From IMG/VR virus record IMGVR_UViG_2693429623_000020: DNA of 9,840 bases; one strand, written 5' to 3'. Source of the stretch: a virus (Duplodnaviria > Heunggongvirae > Uroviricota > Caudoviricetes). Shown here one piece after another: positions 1-9,840 of this stretch (the first letter of the stretch is position 1; each line of letters begins with the position of its first letter). The translations under genes were made by a program, and so were the position numbers. Below the pieces are notes generated by a model, which saw nothing but the letters and a program-made list of their open reading frames with translations, was not told the origin of the DNA and did no database searches.

Positions 1-1239
1 ATGAGCAGCGCAATTCATAGACTTAGCGACACTCTTTTACGAAAATTAAGCGGATCACCAACCACAAAAAACGCCTTTTTTAATGACGGTGGCAATCTTA
101 GCGTAAGACATTCCACCAGCGGCCTGTTAACCTGGTATTTCACTTACAGGGCCGGAACTGGCAGGCAGGTATCACCGGAACGCCTGAGACTGGGCAACTA
201 TCCCGATCTGAGCCTGAAAGCAGCCAGGGAAAAAGCGGCACAGTGTCGCGCCTGGCTGGCGGAGGGGAAAAATCCACGCCATGAGCTTAATCACACAGTG
301 CAGGAAGCGTTAGCCCCTGTGACGGTTAAGGACGCGCTCACTTACTGGCTTGAGTCGTATGCGAAGGAAAAGCGCACTGACCACGAATCACTGAAAAGCC
401 GTATCAATAAGCACATAATCAGCCAGATTGGTGCTATGCCGCTGGATAAATGCGAGCTACGCCACTGGCTGGCCTGTTTTGACCAGCTTGCTAAGCGTAA
501 TCCGGTATCAGCCGGCTTTTTGTTGCAGGTATGCAAACAGGCGCTTAAGTACTGCCGTAAACGTCGCTACGCCGTCAGTAACGTTCTTGATGATATGGTC
601 GTAGGTGATGTGGGAAAAAAAGCAGAAATAAGCGAGCGAGTGCTAACAAACAAGGAGCTTGGCGAGCTACTCCGCGCACTGGATGAAAAAATTTTCCCGC
701 CGTACTACAGCGCTTTAATTCGCCTTCTGATTGTCTTCGGATGCCGCACCACTGAGCTAAGACGCTCCGAGGTTCGGGAATGGGATTTTAAAGAAATGCT
801 CTGGACTGTGCCGAAAGAACACAGCAAAACGAAGGTAGCAATATTCAGGCCAATACCGGAAGCGATCTTGCCGTTCGTCATGAAGCTGGTGGAGCAGAAC
901 AGGCACACGGGCTTATTGCTTGGAGAACTGAAAGGGCAATCATCCGTAGCAGAGTACGGAAGAACGGCACACAGACGCATTAATCAAACCCCCTGGTCGT
1001 TGCACGACATCCGGCACACATTTACAACCATGCTGAACGATTTAGGCGTGGATCCGCATATTGTCGAACAGCTTACTGCCCACCAGATGCCAGGAATGCA
1101 ACGCGTCTATAACCACTCCCGTTATCTCGATGCAAAGCGTGACGCTCTTAATCTATGGGTAGACCGTCTCGAGCTTCTCCAGAACAATGATGAAAAAATC
1201 GTTGTTATGACCCCGCGAATTTACCCCCAAAATTCTTGA
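1..1239 (+). CDS. int: Tyrosine recombinase / site-specific integrase, P4-type (412 aa)
   Basis: N-terminus LSDT..K.....DGGNL.....SG...W.F.YR fits the P4-type integrase N-terminal domain; C-terminal region has HDIRHTF and RVYNHSRY consistent with the His/Arg/Tyr catalytic residues. ATG at position 1, stop at 1237-1239. Confidence 0.9.
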   Translation: MSSAIHRLSDTLLRKLSGSPTTKNAFFNDGGNLSVRHSTSGLLTWYFTYRAGTGRQVSPERLRLGNYPDLSLKAAREKAAQCRAWLAEGKNPRHELNHTVQEALAPVTVKDALTYWLESYAKEKRTDHESLKSRINKHIISQIGAMPLDKCELRHWLACFDQLAKRNPVSAGFLLQVCKQALKYCRKRRYAVSNVLDDMVVGDVGKKAEISERVLTNKELGELLRALDEKIFPPYYSALIRLLIVFGCRTTELRRSEVREWDFKEMLWTVPKEHSKTKVAIFRPIPEAILPFVMKLVEQNRHTGLLLGELKGQSSVAEYGRTAHRRINQTPWSLHDIRHTFTTMLNDLGVDPHIVEQLTAHQMPGMQRVYNHSRYLDAKRDALNLWVDRLELLQNNDEKIVVMTPRIYPQNS

Positions 1240-1245
1240 CAAATT

Positions 1246-1317
1246 ACGGCTGTTTTTTCTTTAAGAGATTACAGCCGTGAATAAATCGTAGAATATCGGA
1301 AAATATCTGCAAATATC
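1246..1317. promoter_or_regulatory. int-alpA intergenic regulatory cluster: 8-bp inverted repeat ACGGCTGT/ACAGCCGT (1246-1253 / 1271-1278) plus three AATATC direct repeats at 10-bp phasing (1292-1297, 1302-1307, 1312-1317)
   Basis: Repeats read directly from the sequence. The 10-bp spacing puts the repeats on one face of the helix, typical of recombination-directionality or regulator binding sites. No protein assignment is possible. Confidence 0.35.
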
Positions 1318-1656
1318 TTCGCTTTATATATGTCAACCATCAAAAAATTGGAATGTCTTCTTCTGAACTTTTATTCTCTGTTTCTTGATTGTTCCAACAC
1401 CTGATGGTTTATCTATTTGTTTTTAATGAGATAATTCAAGCGTAATGCCAAATAACGACATTTTTTGTTGCATCGATTAAAAACTCGTGACACGATTTTA
1501 AACACTAACGAGCTTCTACGAACCTTAGCGAACAAAGCCTTTAGCATGGTTGTGTTTTTAATTTAATAGGTGAAAAAGAATCTAAGTAATATCCGATCTC
1601 ATATATCTACAGCTAAGAGAAAAGTTTATATACGTAATTTTTATGTAGGTTTTTGT

Positions 1657-1866
1657 ATGCGTGAAATAAATGAAGATCGCGTAATCCGTGAGGATGAATG
1701 TCGTAAGTTAACTGGAGTGTGTCGCACTACACGCTACGAACTGGAGAAAAAAGGGAGCTTTCCGTCTCGCCGTAATCTTGGTGGGCGTTCTGTAGGTTGG
1801 CTGCTGTCCGAGGTTATGGAATGGGTTAAAAGCCGGGATCGCATTAATTCAGGTAAGGCAGCGTAA
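1657..1866 (+). CDS. alpA: AlpA-family phage regulatory protein (excisionase-like HTH), 69 aa
   Basis: Translation MREINEDRVIREDECRKLTGVCRTTRYELEKKGSFPSRRNLGGRSVGWLLSEVMEWVKSR follows the AlpA pattern (TG..R.T.Y......FP....LG.+SVGW...E...W). Start chosen at the internal ATG 1657 (AGG 7 nt upstream) rather than the ORF-track start 1570. Confidence 0.8.
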   Translation: MREINEDRVIREDECRKLTGVCRTTRYELEKKGSFPSRRNLGGRSVGWLLSEVMEWVKSRDRINSGKAA

Positions 1867-1883
1867 AGGGGAGCATATGACAT

Positions 1884-1913
1884 ATAAAACAAAGGCGACC
1901 GGGGGCGGTCGCC
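1884..1913 (-). terminator. Rho-independent terminator for the minus-strand operon
   Basis: Hairpin GGCGACCG-GGGG-CGGTCGCC (1894-1913); on the minus strand it is followed by TTTGTTTTAT. No U-run on the + strand. Confidence 0.55.
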
Positions 1914-1980
1914 AATGGATACACACTAAACTTGAACGCATCACCAACAATGCCACATTTGCGGCTGGTGGGCAATGTGA

Positions 1981-2160
1981 TCAGTCAGATTTGGTTCGTT
2001 CCAAGGTTTGCAACGAGAGCTTTTTCCTGTGCTCTTTAAGGAATTTCTCAAGAGCAAACGAACAAGGTGCGAATCTTTCTGATTCATGTTCATGCGCTAT
2101 ATTTTTGCGTCGTCTCTTACGAGTTGGTGATGGTGTTTTGGTTGATTCTGTGTCGCTCAT
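1981..2160 (-). CDS. Small basic hypothetical protein (59 aa), second gene of the divergent operon
   Basis: Minus-strand ORF below the ORF-track size cutoff, hand-translated as MSDTESTKTPSPTRKRRRKNIAHEHESERFAPCSFALEKFLKEHRKKLSLQTLERTKSD. AGGA lies 8-11 nt upstream of the ATG at 2160. It sits between the RHH gene and the minus-strand terminator. Confidence 0.4.
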   Translation of the reverse strand: MSDTESTKTPSPTRKRRRKNIAHEHESERFAPCSFALEKFLKEHRKKLSLQTLERTKSD

Positions 2161-2217
2161 GGTGCTGTCCTGTAAAGCAATGCGCCTGCGTTCCTCAAAC
2201 TATGGCGCTGATAGTGG

Positions 2218-2523
2218 CTATTCCTGCTCTTTGACCTTGCGTCGCTGGAGTTCTTCACGCGCGACGGTGACGAGTTGCCCGATCTCCTCGGCGGCTTTGA
2301 CTCCGATTTTTTCCACCTGCGCTAGGGCATCGAGCGAAGAAACCAGGAGGTTTTCTCCGCTTCCTTCTGCCTGGCGGCGGGCGATTTCACCGCGCATGGC
2401 GGTTACTATGAATCCGGCGTTGCTTTCACCGTCCAGTTTTACGGATTCCATGCCTTCAATAACATCATGCGGGATCCGAGCTGTCAGTGATTGTGATTTT
2501 GCGTTTTTTGAACCTGTAGCCAT
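2218..2523 (-). CDS. Ribbon-helix-helix (CopG/Arc/MetJ-like) putative transcriptional regulator, 101 aa
   Basis: N-terminal segment SLTARIPHDVIEGMESVKLDGESNAGFIVTAMRGEIARRQ has the strand-helix-helix pattern of RHH DNA-binding domains, followed by a charged helical tail. Start placed at the ATG at 2523 (GAGAGGA RBS 7 nt upstream) instead of the ORF-track start 2538. Divergent from the rightward genes. Confidence 0.6.
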   Translation of the reverse strand: MATGSKNAKSQSLTARIPHDVIEGMESVKLDGESNAGFIVTAMRGEIARRQAEGSGENLLVSSLDALAQVEKIGVKAAEEIGQLVTVAREELQRRKVKEQE

Positions 2524-2544
2524 CTGTAATCCTCTCAATGAAAG

Positions 2545-2621
2545 TGTAAGACAATATACACATAAAAAGTCTTACATAAAAGCATTGACATGTAAGCCAC
2601 CTATAAATAAAGTTACTTACA
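2545..2621. promoter_or_regulatory. Divergent promoter/operator region with four TGTAAG half-sites in two inverted pairs
   Basis: TGTAAG at 2545-2550 and 2591-2596; CTTACA at 2571-2576 and 2616-2621. TTGACA (2585-2590) and a -10-like TAAAGT (2608-2613) at 17-bp spacing lie between them. Sits between the divergent RHH gene and the rightward Icd-like gene. Confidence 0.45.
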
Positions 2622-2719
2622 CCTTGTTAATGCAAGGTGCAGAAACGACGAAACCCCGCACTGTAGGAGCAGTAACGGGGCTTCTAACCACCAACGATAG
2701 CAAGATTATCGAGGCAGCT

Positions 2720-2923
2720 ATGAGAAATCATACCATACACCCGCAAGGGCGGGACTCGTACAACCTGAATAAATACATCTGGCGTTTTATCGCCCTGAGC
2801 ACCGCACAACCGCGCGTGATTCACATCGTGGCCACCAGCGAACAGGAAGCACGCCAGCAATCCCCGGCTGGCTGCGTGATGGTATTCGCCGCCCGTATTC
2901 GTCAGGGGGTGTGCCATGCCTGA
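2720..2923 (+). CDS. Small protein resembling the host cell division inhibitor Icd-like family (67 aa)
   Basis: Only the 3' end of the 348-aa ORF-track entry is taken as coding, starting at the ATG at 2720 (GAGG 5 nt upstream). The pattern YIWRFIAL...ATSEQEARQQ....VMVFAARI resembles Icd-like small proteins of enterobacterial satellite prophages as I recall them; not verified by search. Confidence 0.45.
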   Translation: MRNHTIHPQGRDSYNLNKYIWRFIALSTAQPRVIHIVATSEQEARQQSPAGCVMVFAARIRQGVCHA

Positions 2924-3236
2924 TATGTCAAATTACCAGTACCTGATTAATCCGCATTTTAACTGTGAGCATGATATTGCTAAAAAGGTTTATTCCGCTG
3001 CGGATGGGGCTACTGACAATATATCAATGGCTGTTGCGTCAATTGGTAGCCTGATGTGGCATGCGTCAGAAAATGAGGACTATGACGAAAAGGCCATGCG
3101 CATTGATATGGGTAATATCGGTTTGTTACTGGCAATGCTTGGACATTTTGATATTTCGTTACGGTGCACCATTGAAAATGCCACAGATGCATTAAATGCT
3201 ATAAAGAAAGCGAATACTGATTCAAATCGGGGATAA
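2916..3236 (+). CDS. Hypothetical protein (106 aa)
   Basis: ORF with AGGGGG RBS; overlaps the preceding stop by 8 nt (translational coupling). No recognisable motif. Confidence 0.55.
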   Translation: MPDMSNYQYLINPHFNCEHDIAKKVYSAADGATDNISMAVASIGSLMWHASENEDYDEKAMRIDMGNIGLLLAMLGHFDISLRCTIENATDALNAIKKANTDSNRG

Positions 3237-3242
3237 ATAATC

Positions 3243-3542
3243 ATGAGAACGTATTTATCTGGCTTGACTGCCAGCGGTTATGCACACCCCCAAATTATCC
3301 CCGGCGCTATTTATCTTGATAAGAACGGTAACAGAGTAACGGTAAAAGAACTGATGTTTGACCGTGTGTATTTTATTCGTGATGGCTATTCATTTCATAG
3401 TTCGCTGAACGTGGAGATCTTTATTAGCAGATTCAGGCGGGAAATCCCGCTTTCCAGAAATAACCATGTGTCACGTGTGGATGTGGATAAAAAACTACAG
3501 GAACTGAAAAACATGATTGCCGCGTGGAGAGAGCAGAAATGA
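3243..3542 (+). CDS. Hypothetical protein (99 aa), translationally coupled to the replication gene
   Basis: ORF whose stop overlaps the start of the next gene (ATGA at 3539-3542). No recognisable motif. Confidence 0.55.
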   Translation: MRTYLSGLTASGYAHPQIIPGAIYLDKNGNRVTVKELMFDRVYFIRDGYSFHSSLNVEIFISRFRREIPLSRNNHVSRVDVDKKLQELKNMIAAWREQK

Positions 3543-5356
3543 AAAAAGCGCCAAATTTAAAACACCAGCCGCGTGACAAAATGACGGAAGTCATCATTTT
3601 TGCGGGTAGTGATGCGTGGGCACATGCGAAACAGTGGCAGGAACAGGACGGGCGACTGGCTGGCGATAACGTGCCACCTGTCTGGCTTGGAGAGCAACAA
3701 CTTGTCGAACTGGACAACCTGCAAATCGTACCGGACGGACGCTATCGCGTGCGTCTCTATCAGGCGGGGTTATTGCGTCCGGGGCTTGTTAATACCATCG
3801 GGCAGAAACTGGCAGAGGCAGGTGTCAGGGATGCTGATTATTACCCTGAAGGAATGCACAGCCAGAAACGGGAGAACTGGCGTGAATATCTGGAACGTGA
3901 ACGGGCAGAGCTGGCGGAAAAGAAAAAGGTAGTTGAACTGCCTGTAAAGAAAAAAGAGCGGGTAAAAGACGATAACGCTTCATCACTGGCGCTTAACCAG
4001 ATGGGAGCAAGTCAACGCGGCGAAGTTCTCCTGGCACATTATGGCGGTGAACTGGCGATTCATGCTGACTCTGACACTGTTCACCATTACAACGGCATTG
4101 TATGGGAGCCAGTACAGGATAAAGAATTACAGCGAGCTATGGCGCAGATTTTCATTGATGCGGAGATCAGCTATTCGCAGAACGCCATTAAATCGGCGGT
4201 CGATACCATGAAGTTAAGTTTGCCTGTTATGGGGAATACAGCCCGTAACCTGATTGGATTCAGTAACGGGGTATTTGATACCAGAACAGGTAATTTTCGG
4301 GAGCATAACAAAAACGACTGGTTGTTAATTGCCAGTGAATTACCTTTCAGCCCACCAGCAGAGGGGGAAACGCTGGCAACACATGCGCCGAATTTCTGGA
4401 AGTGGTTACGCCGTTCGGTGGCTGAGAATGACCGCAAGGCGGATCGCGTACTGGCTGCATTATTCATGGTGCTGGCGAACCGGTACGACTGGCAGTTATT
4501 CATTGAGGTAACAGGTCCAGGGGGAAGTGGTAAAAGCGTGATGGCGGAGATTTGCACCATGCTGGCGGGTAAGGCCAACACAGTATCGGCAAGCATGAAG
4601 GCGCTGGAAGATGCAAGGGAACGCGCGTTAGTGGTTGGCTTTTCGCTGATTATCATGCCGGATATGACCCGCTACGCTGGTGATGGGGCAGGAATTAAGG
4701 CCATTACAGGCGGTGACAAGGTGGCAATTGACCCGAAACACAAAGCCCCCTACTCAACGCGTATTCCGGCAGTAGTGCTGGCGGTTAACAATAACGCCAT
4801 GTCATTCAGTGACCGCAGCGGGGGGATCTCACGTCGTCGGGTGATATTCAATTTTTCGGAAGTTGTACCGGAGAACGAACGCGATTCAATGCTGGCGGAA
4901 AAAATAGAAGGTGAGCTGGCGGTAGTGATTCGTCATCTGCTTACACGGTTTGCTGACCAGGACGAAGCCAGACGCCTTTTATATGAGCAGCAGAAATCAG
5001 AAGAAGCACTCGCGATAAAGCGTGAAGGTGATTCGCTGGTGGACTTCTGCGGCTATCTCATGGCGTCGGTAATGTGTGATGGCCTGTTAGTGGGTAATGC
5101 TGAAATTGTGCCATTCAGCCCGCGCAGGTATCTCTATCATGCCTATCTGGCTTATATGAAGGCACATGGGTTTGGTAAACCTGTAACACTGACGCGCTTC
5201 GGTAAAGATATGCCGGGGGCAATGGCGGAATATGGCAGGGAGTATATGAAACGGAAAACGAAGCACGGTTTGCGTTCAAACGTGACACTGACGGAGGAAT
5301 CAGAAGACTGGATGCCATCATGTGTATCGGTCACTAATGACGATAGCAAAAATTAA
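3539..5356 (+). CDS. Replication initiator, P4-alpha-like C-terminal region (D5_N-like plus SF3 helicase P-loop NTPase), 605 aa
   Basis: Walker A motif EVTGPGGSGKS; the surrounding NGVFD..TG...EH and FW.WL.R context is typical of the phage/plasmid primase P4-family C-terminal domain. Start set at the ATG at 3539 (ATGA overlap, GGAGAG RBS) rather than the track start 3524. A canonical primase domain is not obvious in the N-terminal 250 aa. Confidence 0.85.
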   Translation: MKKAPNLKHQPRDKMTEVIIFAGSDAWAHAKQWQEQDGRLAGDNVPPVWLGEQQLVELDNLQIVPDGRYRVRLYQAGLLRPGLVNTIGQKLAEAGVRDADYYPEGMHSQKRENWREYLERERAELAEKKKVVELPVKKKERVKDDNASSLALNQMGASQRGEVLLAHYGGELAIHADSDTVHHYNGIVWEPVQDKELQRAMAQIFIDAEISYSQNAIKSAVDTMKLSLPVMGNTARNLIGFSNGVFDTRTGNFREHNKNDWLLIASELPFSPPAEGETLATHAPNFWKWLRRSVAENDRKADRVLAALFMVLANRYDWQLFIEVTGPGGSGKSVMAEICTMLAGKANTVSASMKALEDARERALVVGFSLIIMPDMTRYAGDGAGIKAITGGDKVAIDPKHKAPYSTRIPAVVLAVNNNAMSFSDRSGGISRRRVIFNFSEVVPENERDSMLAEKIEGELAVVIRHLLTRFADQDEARRLLYEQQKSEEALAIKREGDSLVDFCGYLMASVMCDGLLVGNAEIVPFSPRRYLYHAYLAYMKAHGFGKPVTLTRFGKDMPGAMAEYGREYMKRKTKHGLRSNVTLTEESEDWMPSCVSVTNDDSKN

Positions 5357-5369
5357 ACTTATGGAATAA

Positions 5370-5592
5370 CTGTTCACCACTGTTCACCCTGTCATAAATA
5401 TCTTTTGTATCAGTATGTTATAGGGTGAACAGTTATTTATGAACTGTTCACCAAACTATTCACTGTTCACCTTTTTGATTGTTTATTGAGCTTCAAGGGT
5501 GAACAGTGGTGAACAGTTGGTGAATAGTTTTTGTGAAACTGTTCACCCCTTAACATTATGAATTAAAAGATAAAATATCAAAAGGTGAACAG
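5370..5592. repeat. Replication origin: at least nine 9-bp iterons CTGTTCACC / GGTGAACAG in both orientations in an AT-rich background
   Basis: CTGTTCACC at 5370, 5380, 5444, 5463, 5539; GGTGAACAG at 5424, 5498, 5508, 5584; degenerate copies near 5454 and 5518. The core TGTTCACC is the type I iteron bound by P4 alpha (from memory). Located directly after the alpha-like gene. Confidence 0.8.
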
Positions 5593-5643
5593 GTGAAGGG
5601 TTAAAACGCAAAAATTTTAATTTACTGCTGTGAGATAAAGCCT

Positions 5644-5889
5644 ATGACAGCGAAGCACACAAAAAAATCACAATCGCACGCCCTTGATTTGACGGAACAC
5701 TGGTTAAGGGTGTCGATAAAAATCATCGACCGCAACGCCGGGGAAGGATATGCGAAAGCACATCCCGAACTGATTAGCTCATTCATGACAACGGCAGCTG
5801 CAAACTTTGCCACGCTGACAGAACGGGAGATTGCCGAAGCGGAACAGGTGACAACCATCAACGTTAAAACCGGAGAGCAGACAGCATGA
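5644..5889 (+). CDS. Hypothetical protein (81 aa)
   Basis: ORF whose stop overlaps the start of the SSB-like gene (ATGA at 5886-5889). Weak RBS; no recognisable motif. Confidence 0.45.
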   Translation: MTAKHTKKSQSHALDLTEHWLRVSIKIIDRNAGEGYAKAHPELISSFMTTAAANFATLTEREIAEAEQVTTINVKTGEQTA

Positions 5890-6269
5890 CAGCACAGATA
5901 GCGGCTTACGGGCGGCTGGTGGCTGACCCGCAGTTAAAGACCACCAGCAAGGGTACACAAATGACGATGGCGAGTATGGCGGTCCCACTTCCGTGCAGCC
6001 AGGCAGATGACGGAACGGCGACGATGTGGTTATCCGTCCTGGCGTTTGGCAGACAGGCCGAAGCACTGGCAAAGCACCGCAAGGGCGAACTCCTGAGCGT
6101 GGCGGGTAACATGCAGGTGAGCCAGTGGACCGGACAGAACGGGGAGACGCGGCAGGGCTGGCAGGTTATCGCAGACAGCGTAATCAGTGCGAGAACGGCG
6201 CGACCGGGCGGCAAAAAAGGCCAACAGGCGGGAAATGATGATCCGTACGGGGATAACATACCGTTTTAA
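5886..6269 (+). CDS. ssb: Single-stranded DNA-binding protein-like (OB fold with SSB-type acidic C-terminal tip), 127 aa
   Basis: Ends in DDPYGDNIPF (E. coli SSB ends DDDIPF). The core pattern G.L..DP...W..V..FG..AE.....KG....V.G.......W....G..R matches the SSB OB fold. Confidence 0.65.
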   Translation: MTAQIAAYGRLVADPQLKTTSKGTQMTMASMAVPLPCSQADDGTATMWLSVLAFGRQAEALAKHRKGELLSVAGNMQVSQWTGQNGETRQGWQVIADSVISARTARPGGKKGQQAGNDDPYGDNIPF

Positions 6270-6284
6270 GCAACGAGTAACAGA

Positions 6285-6307
6285 AGCCGGAGCAATCCGG
6301 CTTTTTT
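6285..6307 (+). terminator. Rho-independent terminator after the SSB-like gene
   Basis: Hairpin AGCCGGA-GCAA-TCCGGCT followed by TTTTTT. Confidence 0.7.
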
Positions 6308-6309
6308 AT

Positions 6310-6381
6310 GGGTCCTCCCGGTGTAGTGACCTGCCACGGGGCGGGAGCGTCGCGGAAAAAGGCTGGTTTTTGCATTTTCAT
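6310..6381 (+). other. cos-like element, copy A (lambda cosQ-cosN-like), upstream of the capsid module
   Basis: GGGTCCTCCCGGTG...CCACG GGGCGGGAGCGT CGCGG...TTTTCAT. Lambda's right end/left end junction as I recall it is TTTACGGGTCCTTTCCGGTG...GTTACG | GGGCGGCGACCT | CGCGGGTTTTCGC. 66/72 identical to copy B. Putative 12-nt cohesive end at 6339-6350. Confidence 0.55.
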
Positions 6382-6427
6382 GGCGGCGGCAGCATGTGTA
6401 GTAATTTATTGATAATTAAAAGTTATT

Positions 6428-6525
6428 TCTGTTTTCACCTGTACAATATTTTTTTCTCCCTGTCATTAGACCAGTTTGCAATTAATTGAAATATATAAAT
6501 AAATCTGTTTTTCACCTGCCAGGTG
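6428..6525. promoter_or_regulatory. Capsid-operon leader motifs: two CTGTTTT(T)CACCTG iteron-like repeats and a 13-bp palindrome CACCTGCCAGGTG
   Basis: TCTGTTTTCACCTG at 6428-6441 and TCTGTTTTTCACCTG at 6504-6518; palindrome at 6513-6525. The motifs resemble the ori iteron CTGTTCACC with a T-insertion. Confidence 0.35.
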
Positions 6526-6568
6526 GAGTTGCCTGTGTCAAAACGTGTTCAGATGGCGGGATATTTAT

Positions 6569-6591
6569 GCCGGATTTTATCCGGCTTTTTT
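6569..6591 (+). terminator. Intrinsic terminator-like hairpin inside the capsid-operon leader
   Basis: GCCGGA-TTTTA-TCCGGC followed by TTTTTT; about 100 bp upstream of the capsid-operon start. Confidence 0.5.
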
Positions 6592-6693
6592 GTGTCTGAA
6601 TCTCATTAATCTATTTTTATGATAGAAATATGTTTATCTACCACTTTTATCGATCAATAATGTGCACAGTTTAGTCAGTAAGAGGAAGTTACT

Positions 6694-6900
6694 GTGAGTT
6701 GTATTAATGACCTGAACACGGGCGATATCAGGGGTGGTTCCGTTCATCTGGATGCGCAGACCGTTATGCGCCTTAAGCAGTACAGGATCGACCATATAAA
6801 TCATCATCCTGACAAACCATTACCAGGTGTGGCGCAGATTGTCAGACATGCCGTAAACACCTGGCTTAATCAGAATGGTTTTGCATCGGTGGGGGAATAA
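6694..6900 (+). CDS. Small RHH-like putative DNA-binding protein (68 aa), first gene of the capsid operon
   Basis: GTG start with AGAGGAAG RBS. SVHLDAQTVMRLKQY...VAQIVRHAVNTWLNQ fits a strand-helix-helix pattern. Its stop overlaps the start of the capsid gene (TAATG). Confidence 0.5.
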   Translation: MSCINDLNTGDIRGGSVHLDAQTVMRLKQYRIDHINHHPDKPLPGVAQIVRHAVNTWLNQNGFASVGE

Positions 6901-8813
6901 TGAATCGCTGGTACACCATTAAGGCGGCGGATGTTCGTGGAGCGGCGGATATATCTATCTATGAGGAGATTGGCGGCTTCGGTGTTACTGCAAAGCAGTT
7001 CGCGGAAGACCTGAAAGCCCTTGGCGATGTTTCACATATCAATCTGAGGATCCATTCACCAGGTGGTGATGTGTTTGAAGGCATCGCCATCTATAACCTG
7101 CTACGGAATCATCCGGCAGACATTACGGTTTATATCGATGGTGTTGCGGCTTCAATGGCTTCGGTGGTCGCAATGGCTGGCGATCGTGTAGTGATGCCGG
7201 AGAACGCCATGATGATGATCCATAAACCGTGGGGGATCTCTGGCGGAAATGCTGGCGATATGCGTGATTATGCTGATTTGCTGGATAAGGTGGAAACCGT
7301 GTTAATCCCTGCTTATGCCAGAAAAACGGGCAAATCAGCACAGGAAATTACCGCCATGCTGGAGGATGAAACCTGGATGGATGGGAAAGAATGCCTTAAG
7401 CACGGTTTTGCTGATGAATTGTTGCCATCCGTCAGAGCAATGGCGCGAATTGAATCGAAACGCACAGGAGATTTTTTACATATGCCGGAAACCATTAAAG
7501 GAATGATTACACCGCCACAGGGAGCGGCAAATATTGCTGGTAATGAACAGAAGCGCATCAATGGAATAAGTGAAGTGTTTAGCCTGTTCGGCAGTCGTTA
7601 CGACGGGATCAAAATGGCGTGTCTGGAAGATGCATCATGTACACCGGAAATGGCCCGTGAAAAGCTGTTGAACGAGCTGGGGCGCGAGTCCACGCCATCC
7701 AATAAAAATACCCCGCCTCATATCTATGCTGGAAACGGAAACATAACAGGTGATGCAATTCGTCAGGGGCTTTATTCCCGTCTTGGGTATGAACGGCCTG
7801 AACGAGGCAACCCTTACGCGATGATGAGTCTTTTTGAAATGGCCCAGGCATCACTGGTTGATCGTGGTATCACTGTGAGCGGTTTTATTAATCGCTCGCA
7901 GGTTGTTAATGCGGCTTTTACACACAGCAGCAGTGATTTTTCTCATATTCTGGCTGGTGGGGCTGAAAAATCTGTACTGAAAGGCTGGCAGGACAGCGGC
8001 GAAACGTTCCAGAAATGGACGCGTACCGGTTCGCTTTCAAACTTTCATGAAGCAAAGCGCGTTGGTCTGAATGGTTTTTCAAAGCTGGATAAAGTACCGG
8101 AAGGTGCGGAATATAAATACATCACCACCAGCGATAAAGGTGTACCTATTGCGCTGGCCACGTACGGGAATATATTTTCCGTTACCCGTCAGGCCATTAT
8201 CAACGATGACCTGACCCAGTTAACTACAATCCCCATGGCGATGGGACGCGCAGCTGCCAGAACAGTTGGCAATCTGGTTTATCTCCTGTTAACCAGCAAC
8301 GGCAAGTTTACGGATGGTAAAGCGTTATTCCATGCCGATCATAAAAATCTTATTGCGAAGGATATGGACATGGAGGGGCTTAACGAAGCCCGTAAGCTGA
8401 TGCGCCTCCAGGAAGACGCTAACGGCGATTCGCTGAATATTACCCCTGCATTTGTCCTGGTCCCCGCCGCGCTGGAGTCTGCCGCACATCGCGCCATTCT
8501 GTCATCGTCATCACTCTTTCCGGTTGATGGCGTGGGCACTATCAATCAGAACCCCGGCATCATTAACGTGGTGAAAGATATGGCGGAGGTAATCGTTGAG
8601 CCACGTCTTGATAAAGCCAATAACAAGGAGTGGTATGTGGCAGCGGCGAAGGGTATGGACACGATAGAGGTCGCTTATCTTGATGGTATTGATACGCCAT
8701 ATCTTGAGGAGCAGGAGGGCTTTACTGTTGATGGCGTCGCCTGGAAGGTGCGCATAGATGCAGGTGTAGCGGCCCTCGACTATCGCGGATTACTGAAATC
8801 GAGTGGAGCATGA
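6900..8813 (+). CDS. ClpP-like (S14) prohead protease fused to an HK97-fold major capsid protein (637 aa)
   Basis: N-terminal about 190 aa contain DGVAASMASVVAMAG and MMIHKPWGISGG, matching the ClpP active-site Ser and His motifs (GQAASMGAF / MIHQPLGG). The C-terminal 350 aa (..TIEVAYLDG..FTVDGVAWKVRIDAGVAALDYRG) resemble HK97-like major capsid proteins. GGGGGAA RBS. Confidence 0.85.
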   Translation: MNRWYTIKAADVRGAADISIYEEIGGFGVTAKQFAEDLKALGDVSHINLRIHSPGGDVFEGIAIYNLLRNHPADITVYIDGVAASMASVVAMAGDRVVMPENAMMMIHKPWGISGGNAGDMRDYADLLDKVETVLIPAYARKTGKSAQEITAMLEDETWMDGKECLKHGFADELLPSVRAMARIESKRTGDFLHMPETIKGMITPPQGAANIAGNEQKRINGISEVFSLFGSRYDGIKMACLEDASCTPEMAREKLLNELGRESTPSNKNTPPHIYAGNGNITGDAIRQGLYSRLGYERPERGNPYAMMSLFEMAQASLVDRGITVSGFINRSQVVNAAFTHSSSDFSHILAGGAEKSVLKGWQDSGETFQKWTRTGSLSNFHEAKRVGLNGFSKLDKVPEGAEYKYITTSDKGVPIALATYGNIFSVTRQAIINDDLTQLTTIPMAMGRAAARTVGNLVYLLLTSNGKFTDGKALFHADHKNLIAKDMDMEGLNEARKLMRLQEDANGDSLNITPAFVLVPAALESAAHRAILSSSSLFPVDGVGTINQNPGIINVVKDMAEVIVEPRLDKANNKEWYVAAAKGMDTIEVAYLDGIDTPYLEEQEGFTVDGVAWKVRIDAGVAALDYRGLLKSSGA

Positions 8814-8820
8814 CAACAAG

Positions 8821-8843
8821 GGCGGCGATAGCCGCCTTTTTTT
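8821..8843 (+). terminator. Rho-independent terminator after the capsid gene
   Basis: Hairpin GGCGGC-GATA-GCCGCC followed by TTTTTTT. Confidence 0.7.
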
Positions 8844-8845
8844 AC

Positions 8846-8917
8846 GGGTCCTCCCGGTGGGGTGGTCTGCCACGGGGCGGGAGCGGCGCGGAAAAAGGCT
8901 AGTTTTTGCATTTTCAT
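8846..8917 (+). other. cos-like element, copy B (lambda cosQ-cosN-like), about 150 bp upstream of the Nu1-like terminase gene
   Basis: TTTACGGGTCCTCCCGGTG...CCACG GGGCGGGAGCGG CGCGG...TTTTCAT. Same arrangement as lambda, where cos precedes Nu1. Putative 12-nt cohesive end at 8875-8886. Confidence 0.6.
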
Positions 8918-9070
8918 TCGTCATCATCATCTTCATATTGTATTGAATTTTAAGTATTTTTATTTTTGGTATGTTAATTTTGCTTGTTTTATGCTCAACA
9001 TATAGCGCATTTTTTGACCTCTTCTGAAAGTTGTTCGCAAGATGCATGTTTAAAACATTCTGGAGCGGGT

Positions 9071-9556
9071 ATGGATCGAGAACTGAAAAATCTGATGCTG
9101 AACATTAATCAACTGGCGGCGATAGCGGGAATATGTCGTCAGACTGCGGCGGCAAGGCTGAAAAACATCCAGCCAGCCGGAGGGCATGACAAGCTGAAAC
9201 TCTATCGGGTGACTGACATTCTGACCTGTTTTCTTGATCTTCCCGTTCCGGCATCACTGGAAGAAATGGAGCCACATGACCGTAAGGCCTGGTATCAGTC
9301 CGAACGTGAACGCCTCAAGTTCGAACAGGAAACGGCGCAACTCATACCCGCCGATGATGTGCGAAAAGAGATGGCTATATGGGGAGAAATCGTAAGCGAG
9401 GAACTGGCAAAACTCCCCAATATTCTGGCACGTGATGCCGGGCTTAAACCGATGGCAGTAAACAGAGTGCAGTCAATTATTGACGATTTGTGTAATCAGA
9501 TTATCAGCCGGATGGTAAAAAATGACGTAGTGAATGAGGTCGCAAAACAGGCATGA
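9071..9556 (+). CDS. Terminase small subunit-like protein (lambda Nu1-like N-terminal winged HTH), 161 aa
   Basis: Start at the internal ATG 9071 (GGAG 5 nt upstream). LNINQLAAIAGICRQTAAARLKNIQPAGGHDKLKLYRVTDILTCF parallels Nu1 VNKKQLADIFGASIRTIQNWQEQGMPVLRGGGKGNEVLYDSAAVIKWY, and it sits just downstream of a cos-like site. It could instead be a packaging-redirection factor (Rpp-like). Confidence 0.6.
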   Translation: MDRELKNLMLNINQLAAIAGICRQTAAARLKNIQPAGGHDKLKLYRVTDILTCFLDLPVPASLEEMEPHDRKAWYQSERERLKFEQETAQLIPADDVRKEMAIWGEIVSEELAKLPNILARDAGLKPMAVNRVQSIIDDLCNQIISRMVKNDVVNEVAKQA

Positions 9557-9840
9557 TAATGACCGAATCTGAAATACTGCGATTAATCCGCTGTGCTGGT
9601 GGAATTAGCCAGTTGGCTGACGAACAGGCCGCGCAGCCAGATACAGTCACCGCTGAAAATTACGCGCGTGTGGTGGCTGAGGTGATGCGCCGTGACGGTA
9701 TTGAGCTTAACGGCGTGGATATGCGCAACATACGAACCAGAGTCCTTGAGTTGCTGGCATACCGTCACCGTTCTCAACAACGGAGGGAGAGCGCGAAAAA
9801 TACTTATCAGTGGAAGAAGCCGGAATGGTTGCGGCGGTAA
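9553..9840 (+). CDS. Hypothetical protein (95 aa), translationally coupled to the terminase-like gene
   Basis: ATGA overlap at 9553-9556; stop at the last base of the window. No recognisable motif. Occupies the position where a large terminase would follow Nu1 in lambda. Confidence 0.5.
   Translation: MIMTESEILRLIRCAGGISQLADEQAAQPDTVTAENYARVVAEVMRRDGIELNGVDMRNIRTRVLELLAYRHRSQQRRESAKNTYQWKKPEWLRR

Follow-up and report, generated by a model that had tools for sequence, protein, structure and literature searches.

Two predicted cos sites with different recognition regions bracket the capsid module of an Escherichia coli PICI

Why should a small replicon carry two copies of what looks like a phage packaging site, in the same orientation and on either side of its capsid gene? 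The question is raised by a stretch of 9,840 nucleotides from IMG/VR virus record IMGVR_UViG_2693429623_000020 (the window), in which a first-pass annotation had described a 72-bp cos-like element occurring twice in direct orientation (copy A and copy B), with 66/72 positions identical. Repeat search and base comparison bore out this description. A single long direct repeat is present in the window, 6302-6381 against 8838-8917, with 91% identity over 80 nt; the copies match at 66/72 positions between 6310-6381 and 8846-8917 and at 73/80 over the extended repeat, and the seven differences fall at 6309, 6324, 6325, 6329, 6330, 6350 and 6365. Because no other repeat family of comparable identity in the 9.8-kb window is longer than 38 nt, a chance origin of the 80-nt repeat is excluded. 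The annotation had also placed an intrinsic terminator before each copy, and a G+C hairpin with a U-run indeed lies ahead of both. The two plus-strand terminators adjoining the copies were absent from the output of a consensus terminator scanner, and they were therefore checked by RNA folding against shuffled sequences. The elements around the two cores are as follows.

6286 to 6307, plus strand: intrinsic terminator 3′ of ssb, hairpin at 6286-6301 followed by T6; -16.1 kcal/mol, z -4.2 against shuffles.
6310 to 6381, plus strand: core of cos A, with cosQ at 6310-6316, a predicted top-strand nick at 6338/6339 and the 12-nt cohesive-end sequence GGGCGGGAGCGT at 6339-6350.
6569 to 6594, plus strand: second terminator-like hairpin and T-run, between cos A and the small ORF; fold z -2.9.
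8821 to 8843, plus strand: intrinsic terminator 3′ of the capsid gene, hairpin at 8821-8836 followed by T7; -16.2 kcal/mol, z -4.2.
8846 to 8917, plus strand: core of cos B, with cosQ at 8846-8852, a predicted nick at 8874/8875 and GGGCGGGAGCGG at 8875-8886.

Both copies were aligned without gaps from the predicted nick with lambda cos and with the ends of phage Tritos. The heptamer GGGTCCT present in both is identical to lambda cosQ and is invariant in the alignment of island and phage cos sites; both copies also share with lambda the bases at the nick (...ACG before it, GGGCGG... after it) and CGCGG behind the 12-nt stretch, and in cos A the conserved stretch that follows the 12-nt sequence, up to 6381, occupies the position of lambda I2. 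The distance from the nick to the small-terminase gene, ∼185-200 nt, is again as in lambda. The likeness is not complete: cosN is similar only, the overhang differs from that of lambda at 4/12 positions, cosQ lies one base nearer the nick, and the small terminase belongs to a different family (DUF1441/PHROG 141, against Nu1/PHROG 57 in lambda). Searching 50,697 phage records with copy A matched 36 lambdoid phages, and the linear records of Tritos and cdtI start exactly at the base equivalent to 6339, that is, at the predicted nick. The Tritos record ends at its 3′ side with ...CTGCCACG, and the terminus site of Tritos and cdtI is predicted to be GGGCGGGAGCG. The position of the nick thus rests on lambda homology and on these record termini, the second nick being placed purely by analogy; such termini may reflect homology rather than end mapping, the genome note of phage Ayreon having set the record start by prediction. 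In the literature we found no experimentally mapped cohesive ends for phages of the cdtI or mEp460 type, only a genome note predicting cos. With cosQ and cosN matching lambda and the predicted nick coinciding with the Tritos and cdtI record starts, the suspected cos-like element is a lambdoid cosQ-cosN core: the repeat of 72-80 bp is predicted to be the part of cos that is cut by the large terminase, and by homology it is common to all lambdoid phages of one head-module group, defined by a DUF1441-type TerS and a ClpP-capsid fusion.

The two 12-nt stretches differ at the last base, as had been noted (GGGCGGGAGCGT at 6339-6350 and GGGCGGGAGCGG at 8875-8886). A functional distinction of A from B by this T/G difference was rejected, because comparison of island and phage cores showed both states at both positions, and in phages as well. 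Patterns of single-base differences in the core are likewise mosaic between positions A and B. Hence, the mosaic pattern together with the polymorphic last base shows that the copies exchange sequence, by recombination or gene conversion.

A repeat that sits after terminators and before two operons could also be a structured RNA, a regulatory element or a small protein gene. The annotation had argued for conservation at the nucleic acid level because the overlapping ORFs were in different frames in the two copies; this is correct for the plus strand and wrong for the minus strand, where an ATG ORF (MKMQK...) is in the same register in both, which would speak for a peptide. All five of its codons that differ between copies A and B change the amino acid, however, which argues for conservation of the repeat at the DNA level, and the small minus-strand ORF was rejected as a gene on this ground. 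A structured RNA element was rejected as well: scanning the full window against Rfam at E<=1 placed no family over either copy, folding was no better than that of shuffled sequences (z -0.8 and -1.6), and copies A and B fold differently. Moreover, phage genome records have this sequence at their ends. We regard the RNA, regulatory or small-protein explanation as effectively refuted, with a negligible chance of being right.

The replicon itself could be identified from its surroundings. In E. coli AR_0011, a segment lying between cspD/yljB and clpS shares 99.8% identity with the window, and 10,861 bp at cspD-clpS are flanked there by the att core ATGATAGTTAT; the catalogue gives the same att sequence and site for EcCIIHE3034. 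The gene order is integrase, AlpA, Icd-like, DUF4222, D5-type primase, SSB, copy A, small ORF, capsid fusion, copy B, DUF1441 and 95-aa ORF, with Pfam matches to integrase, AlpA and D5-type primase. Behind the 95-aa gene the island continues for another 535 bp (in the sequence L003 the gene ends at 12780 and the right att core begins at 13315). Within the 10.9-kb island no portal, connector, HNH or TerL gene was found. Judged by gene content and order, the window is a 10.9-kb classical cos-type PICI of E. coli of the EcCICFT073 family. It resembles the cf-PICI EcCIEDL933, likewise an E. coli PICI with int, alpA, rep, capsid protein and protease, whereas cf-PICIs are ∼15.4 kb long and carry in addition portal, head-tail connectors, HNH, TerS and TerL (bioRxiv 10.1101/2022.09.08.507074). 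A cf-PICI identity was rejected on the absence of portal, connectors, HNH and TerL from the island. Just 3′ of the primase gene, at 5355-5600, lies a dense cluster of direct and inverted GGTGAACAG / CTGTTCACC iterons, which is probably the replication origin of the island. The ssb region is variable: three sister islands (L011, L017 and L024) join 5665 to 6222, without 5666-6221, and keep cos A. The genes of the right-hand part are the following.

6694 to 6900, plus strand: 68-aa protein, labelled RHH in the first-pass annotation; PHROG 4934 (function not assigned there), its stop overlapping the start of the capsid gene.
6900 to 8813, plus strand: fusion of a ClpP-like prohead protease and an HK97-type major capsid protein; Pfam PF00574 and PF25209.
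9071 to 9556, plus strand: island TerS-like protein, DUF1441; PHROG 141, ‘terminase small subunit’.
9553 to 9840, plus strand: 95-aa protein, the last island gene; PHROG 1561 (function not assigned there), 72% identical to the last gene of EcCICFT073.

Copy A had been placed about 310 bp upstream of an RHH/protease-capsid operon. The distance is right (313 nt to the ORF at 6694) and the RHH label is not confirmed, the 68-aa protein giving no Pfam match; nor has it any similarity to the equally placed 68-aa ORF of EcCICFT073. Copy B, which ends 154 nt before 9071, had been placed upstream of a Nu1-like gene; as in lambda, it sits ∼200 nt ahead of a gene of the small-terminase family, whose product belongs to DUF1441/PHROG 141 and not to Nu1/PHROG 57. 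In tblastn searches against phages the capsid fusion is ∼57% identical to the fusion proteins of all candidate helpers, those of type I and of type II (defined below) alike, and it is an old island-specific lineage and not a recent capture. Deletion of the capsid homologue of EcCICFT073 left its interference with phage unrelieved (PMC6092414).

The sequences that follow the two cores are different, and both are related to phages.

6382 to 6542, plus strand: cosB of type I (the type of Tritos, cdtI and HannyBb), by homology to phage cos regions.
8918 to 9070, plus strand: cosB of type II, 99% identical to a 50-kb IMG/VR phage contig (L046).

For cos A, identity over 6310-6542 is 93.1% to a prophage cos in strain 95-3322 and 92.7% to HannyBb, and over 6339-6542 it is 94.6% to Tritos and cdtI. 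Homology to the type I phages runs from cosQ to 2-3 codons into the phage terS and ends abruptly at 6542, where GTG TCA AA at 6535-6542 is what remains of the start of the phage terS. Inside cos A lie the sole exact IHF consensus of the window (6402-6414, minus strand; chance expectation 0.54 per whole window) and two direct TCTGTTTT(T)CACCTG motifs at 6428-6441 and 6504-6518. For cos B, the match to phage L046 continues into the DUF1441 gene, and identity over 8844-9100 is 82% to a prophage of E. coli 042 and 78% to mEp460. Homology thus places a cosB, the putative TerS- and IHF-binding region between cosN and the small-terminase gene, behind both copies. We conclude that the repeat is the shared part of two complete predicted cos sites, cos A at 6310-6542 and cos B at 8846-9070.

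Comparison of the phages that carry these two types showed that their TerS proteins differ in the N-terminal DNA-binding half and share the C-terminal half; TerL is 87% identical and the portals are 99-100% identical between them, and only one cos is present in each of the phage loci examined. Lambda and phage 21 form a pair of this kind, with a common cutting core and TerL and a different cosB and TerS DNA-binding domain. The type I and type II phages have, in these terms, a common cutting enzyme and core together with different recognition modules, which parallels lambda and 21.

The first-pass annotation had proposed that one copy might be a termination-only or decoy site, cos A for instance providing cosQ and cosN for the terminal cut or soaking up helper terminase. 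In lambda, termination needs cosQ, cosN and I2, and cosB is not needed. That dispensability, which is outlined in PMC6739421, would suit such a role, as would the intact state of both cores, and with a cutting point 2.5 kb away, 40.9 and 46.0 kb would become possible as packaged lengths beside the 43.4 kb of four island units. A termination-only site, however, has no need of the full 160-bp, phage-identical cosB of cos A with its IHF consensus and repeated motifs; a decoy and a site of packaging initiation look alike at the sequence level. With a full-length, phage-identical cosB after both copies the proposal is not supported, and we think it quite improbable.

The gene behind cos B bears on which terminase would act there. 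Residues 1-94 of the island TerS-like protein are 100% identical to TerS of phage L046, and its C-terminal 67 residues (95-161) are island-specific and without the acidic tail (...EAGADDEEELQQEE or ...ELIPDEEGESL) found in every phage TerS compared. By these alignments the protein is a chimera of a phage L046 N-terminal part and an island-specific C-terminus. Membership of the Rpp family was rejected: BLASTP against RppA showed no similarity, a PDB sequence search with the DUF1441 protein for RppC or Nu1 gave nothing meaningful and no RppC match at E<=1, and the protein is a small-terminase homologue of PHROG 141/DUF1441. A way of working like that of Rpp is nevertheless possible by analogy, in which the TerS-like DNA-binding domain would redirect the terminase of the helper. 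Recruitment of TerL by this protein is in doubt because the acidic tail of phage TerS is missing.

The annotation had called two cos sites in one replicon unusual. This was overstated, since EcCICFT073 has two cos sites that were shown experimentally to be functional in a 2018 ISME J and a 2019 Mol Cell paper by Fillol-Salom et al. (PMC6092414, PMC6739421), where SaPIbov4 is cited as a further case. In EcCICFT073, cos1 is essential and recognised by the RppA-TerS complex, and removal of both cos sites abolished transfer (PMC6092414, PMC6739421); cos2 is dispensable, and its deletion increased lambda-mediated transfer (PMC6092414). The authors could not identify a phage cosB in either site (PMC6092414, PMC6739421). 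The two islands are alike in gene order (int, alpA, icd-like, DUF4222, primase, ssb, small ORF, capsid homologue, cos, small DNA-binding packaging protein, conserved last gene), and both have two cos sites with phage-like cosQ and cosN; in each island one of the two immediately follows a terminator and precedes the gene for the packaging protein. We located cos1 and cos2 with the sequences from the supplement of that paper. They lie in inverted orientation on either side of rppA, 0.8 kb from each other (10529 plus and 11339 minus in L006), whereas the window has its sites in direct orientation on either side of the capsid module, at a distance of 2.5 kb. EcCICFT073 further has a lambda-type cosN (GGGCGGCGACCT) where the window island has GGGCGGGAGCGT/G, and an Rpp protein where the window island has the TerS chimera; unlike in EcCICFT073, each cosB of the window island is 93-99% identical to an extant phage lineage. 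By position, cos1 (after a terminator and upstream of rppA) is the equivalent of copy B, and copy A has no counterpart in EcCICFT073, whose cos2 is inverted and downstream of rppA. The satellites SaPIbov4 and SaPIbov5 carry the cos of their helper, SaPIbov4 with two putative cos sites and SaPIbov5 with the capsid homologue Ccm, according to the account cited in PMC6092414; the likeness is drawn through that citation only, and unlike the window island they have unrelated sequences, other hosts and HNH-dependent cos phages as helpers. A multi-cos PICI has therefore been published already, and the window island is a new configuration; what goes beyond the EcCICFT073 case is the two complete cos sites, the chimeric small terminase and the natural variants described below.

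EcCIIHE3034 (L090) carries three cos sites, at 6728 (plus), 9170 (plus) and 10109 (minus). The one after the ssb terminator, in the position of copy A, is 91% identical over 170 nt to an Stx-phage cos; a lambda-type cos sits upstream of its TerS-like gene; and the inverted one matches, with 90% identity across 94 nt, the cos of phi4, the lambdoid CFT073 prophage near the EcCICFT073 island that served as reference. The junction of terminator and cosQ seen in copy A also occurs at cos1 of EcCICFT073 and at two cos sites of EcCIIHE3034. The three sites of EcCIIHE3034 thus indicate that extra cos sites matching other helper lineages recur in this PICI family.

To see how stable the arrangement is in nature we turn to related islands. 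Among 5426 complete E. coli genomes, with a match defined as at least 80% query coverage, the query 6100-9840 (cos A, capsid module, cos B and DUF1441) matched 176, cos A in its island context (query 6270-6720) matched 163, and a contiguous ssb-cos-DUF1441 junction without the capsid module matched three; a query containing the cos core matched ∼2,200 of the 5426, mostly in prophages. Two cos sites, mostly 2,535-2,536 bp apart, are present in 20 of the ∼32 sister islands in IMG/VR, cos B only with the capsid module in 10, and a cos-to-cos deletion in two, the class of one island (L025) having been reassigned by inspection. Loss of the segment between the copies, for which the first-pass annotation had suggested comparing related islands, was therefore found in two IMG/VR islands (L020 and L027) and in the three complete genomes. 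These variants (L020 at ∼6347, L027 at ∼962, NZ_AP027844.1 at 3007339-3008139) are essentially the same island without the capsid module, and the single core of the deletion form is A-type left of the nick and B-type right of it. The hybrid junction in L020 fits both cos joining and homologous recombination.

A second kind of loss concerns cos A itself, whose cassette is absent from about a third of the IMG/VR sister islands. A 16-nt direct repeat, ATCCGGCTTTTTTRTG, at 6295-6310 and 6579-6594 bounds this cassette exactly, and its arms are the 3′ halves of the two terminators. Four islands with cos B only (L036, L038, L021 and L032) lack exactly 6311-6578, 6310 being joined to 6579, and have one terminator. 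Such a structure would be expected if cos A were a non-functional relic, a neutral recombination scar left by a type I phage fragment captured at the terminator-cosQ junction, so that only cos B works. This is the main rival to the reading that we prefer below. In its favour are also the abrupt end of phage homology 2-3 codons into terS, the 10 of ∼32 IMG/VR sister islands that have cos B only, and the dispensable cos2 of EcCICFT073 (PMC6092414). Against a relic, the captured fragment is exactly one complete cos and nothing more, and cos A is kept at 86-100% identity in diverged islands, whose capsid identity is 93-97%, and in 163 complete genomes. Moreover, an independent and different phage-type cos stands at the same post-ssb position in EcCIIHE3034, which argues for repeated selection for a cos there. 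On balance we consider a relic unlikely, while giving it more weight than any other rival.

One group of sister islands (L023, L025, L030, L042, L045 and L083) carries the same cosA-capsid-cosB-DUF1441 module with an integrase that is 22% identical. This sister island lies inside a prophage terL (for example, L083 at 8165-9103 and from 9307 onward, L023 at 2-412 and 11130-12254): terL residues to 332 are encoded upstream of the integrase and residues 325-699 after the last gene, followed by the portal gene. From this layout it is taken to be a satellite integrated in terL of a helper-type prophage.

We therefore return to the question of what two complete cos sites may be for. Their best reading, and in our judgement a fairly probable one, is dual helper specificity. 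The terminase of a type I helper would use its own TerS to initiate at cos A, while initiation at cos B would fall to the TerS of a type II helper or to a terminase redirected by the island TerS-like protein. Packaging would then proceed rightward on island concatemers, and either core could receive the terminal cut when a head of phage size has almost been filled, after about four island units. Four units of 10,861 bp amount to 43.4 kb, against helper genomes of 44.5-47.0 kb, and a start at one cos with an end at the other gives, by arithmetic, 40.9 or 46.0 kb. With the pair, the island could thereby use more kinds of helper. A by-product would be that the capsid module, lying between the copies, becomes deletable, by cos-to-cos joining or by recombination, and cross-site packaging followed by end joining would produce the type of deletion that was observed. 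Dual specificity is favoured because cos A and cos B match the whole cos of different phage lineages, because the phage loci examined have a single cos while the EcCICFT073 and EcCIIHE3034 islands carry two or three, and because cos A, found in 163/5426 genomes, persists in diverged islands. It is weakened because cos A resembles a truncated phage fragment that is bounded by the 16-nt repeat and missing in ∼1/3 of sister islands, and because deletion of the dispensable second cos of EcCICFT073 raised lambda-mediated transfer (PMC6092414).

Extra cos sites in PICIs have been reported before, and those reports left their role open. As a tentative generalisation, which we hold to be possible rather than probable, cos-type PICIs of E. 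coli may carry a small set of complete cos sites, two or three in number, every one of which was copied from another lineage of lambdoid helpers; in the window island these would be types I and II, and in EcCIIHE3034 the Stx-phage, lambda and phi4 types. If so, one island could be packaged by several otherwise incompatible terminases, the second cos of EcCICFT073 would be explained, and direct repeats together with cos-to-cos packaging would give rise to natural capsid-less deletion variants. Such cos-to-cos deletion would be a simple route for the gain and loss of modules in satellites. The window island and its helpers would also offer a natural system, like that of lambda and 21, for the specificity of TerS for cosB, a TerS chimera included. 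Moreover, if each cos is specific to one lineage, the helper range of an island could be read from its DNA, and the mobilisation of islands by prophages would become predictable from sequence.
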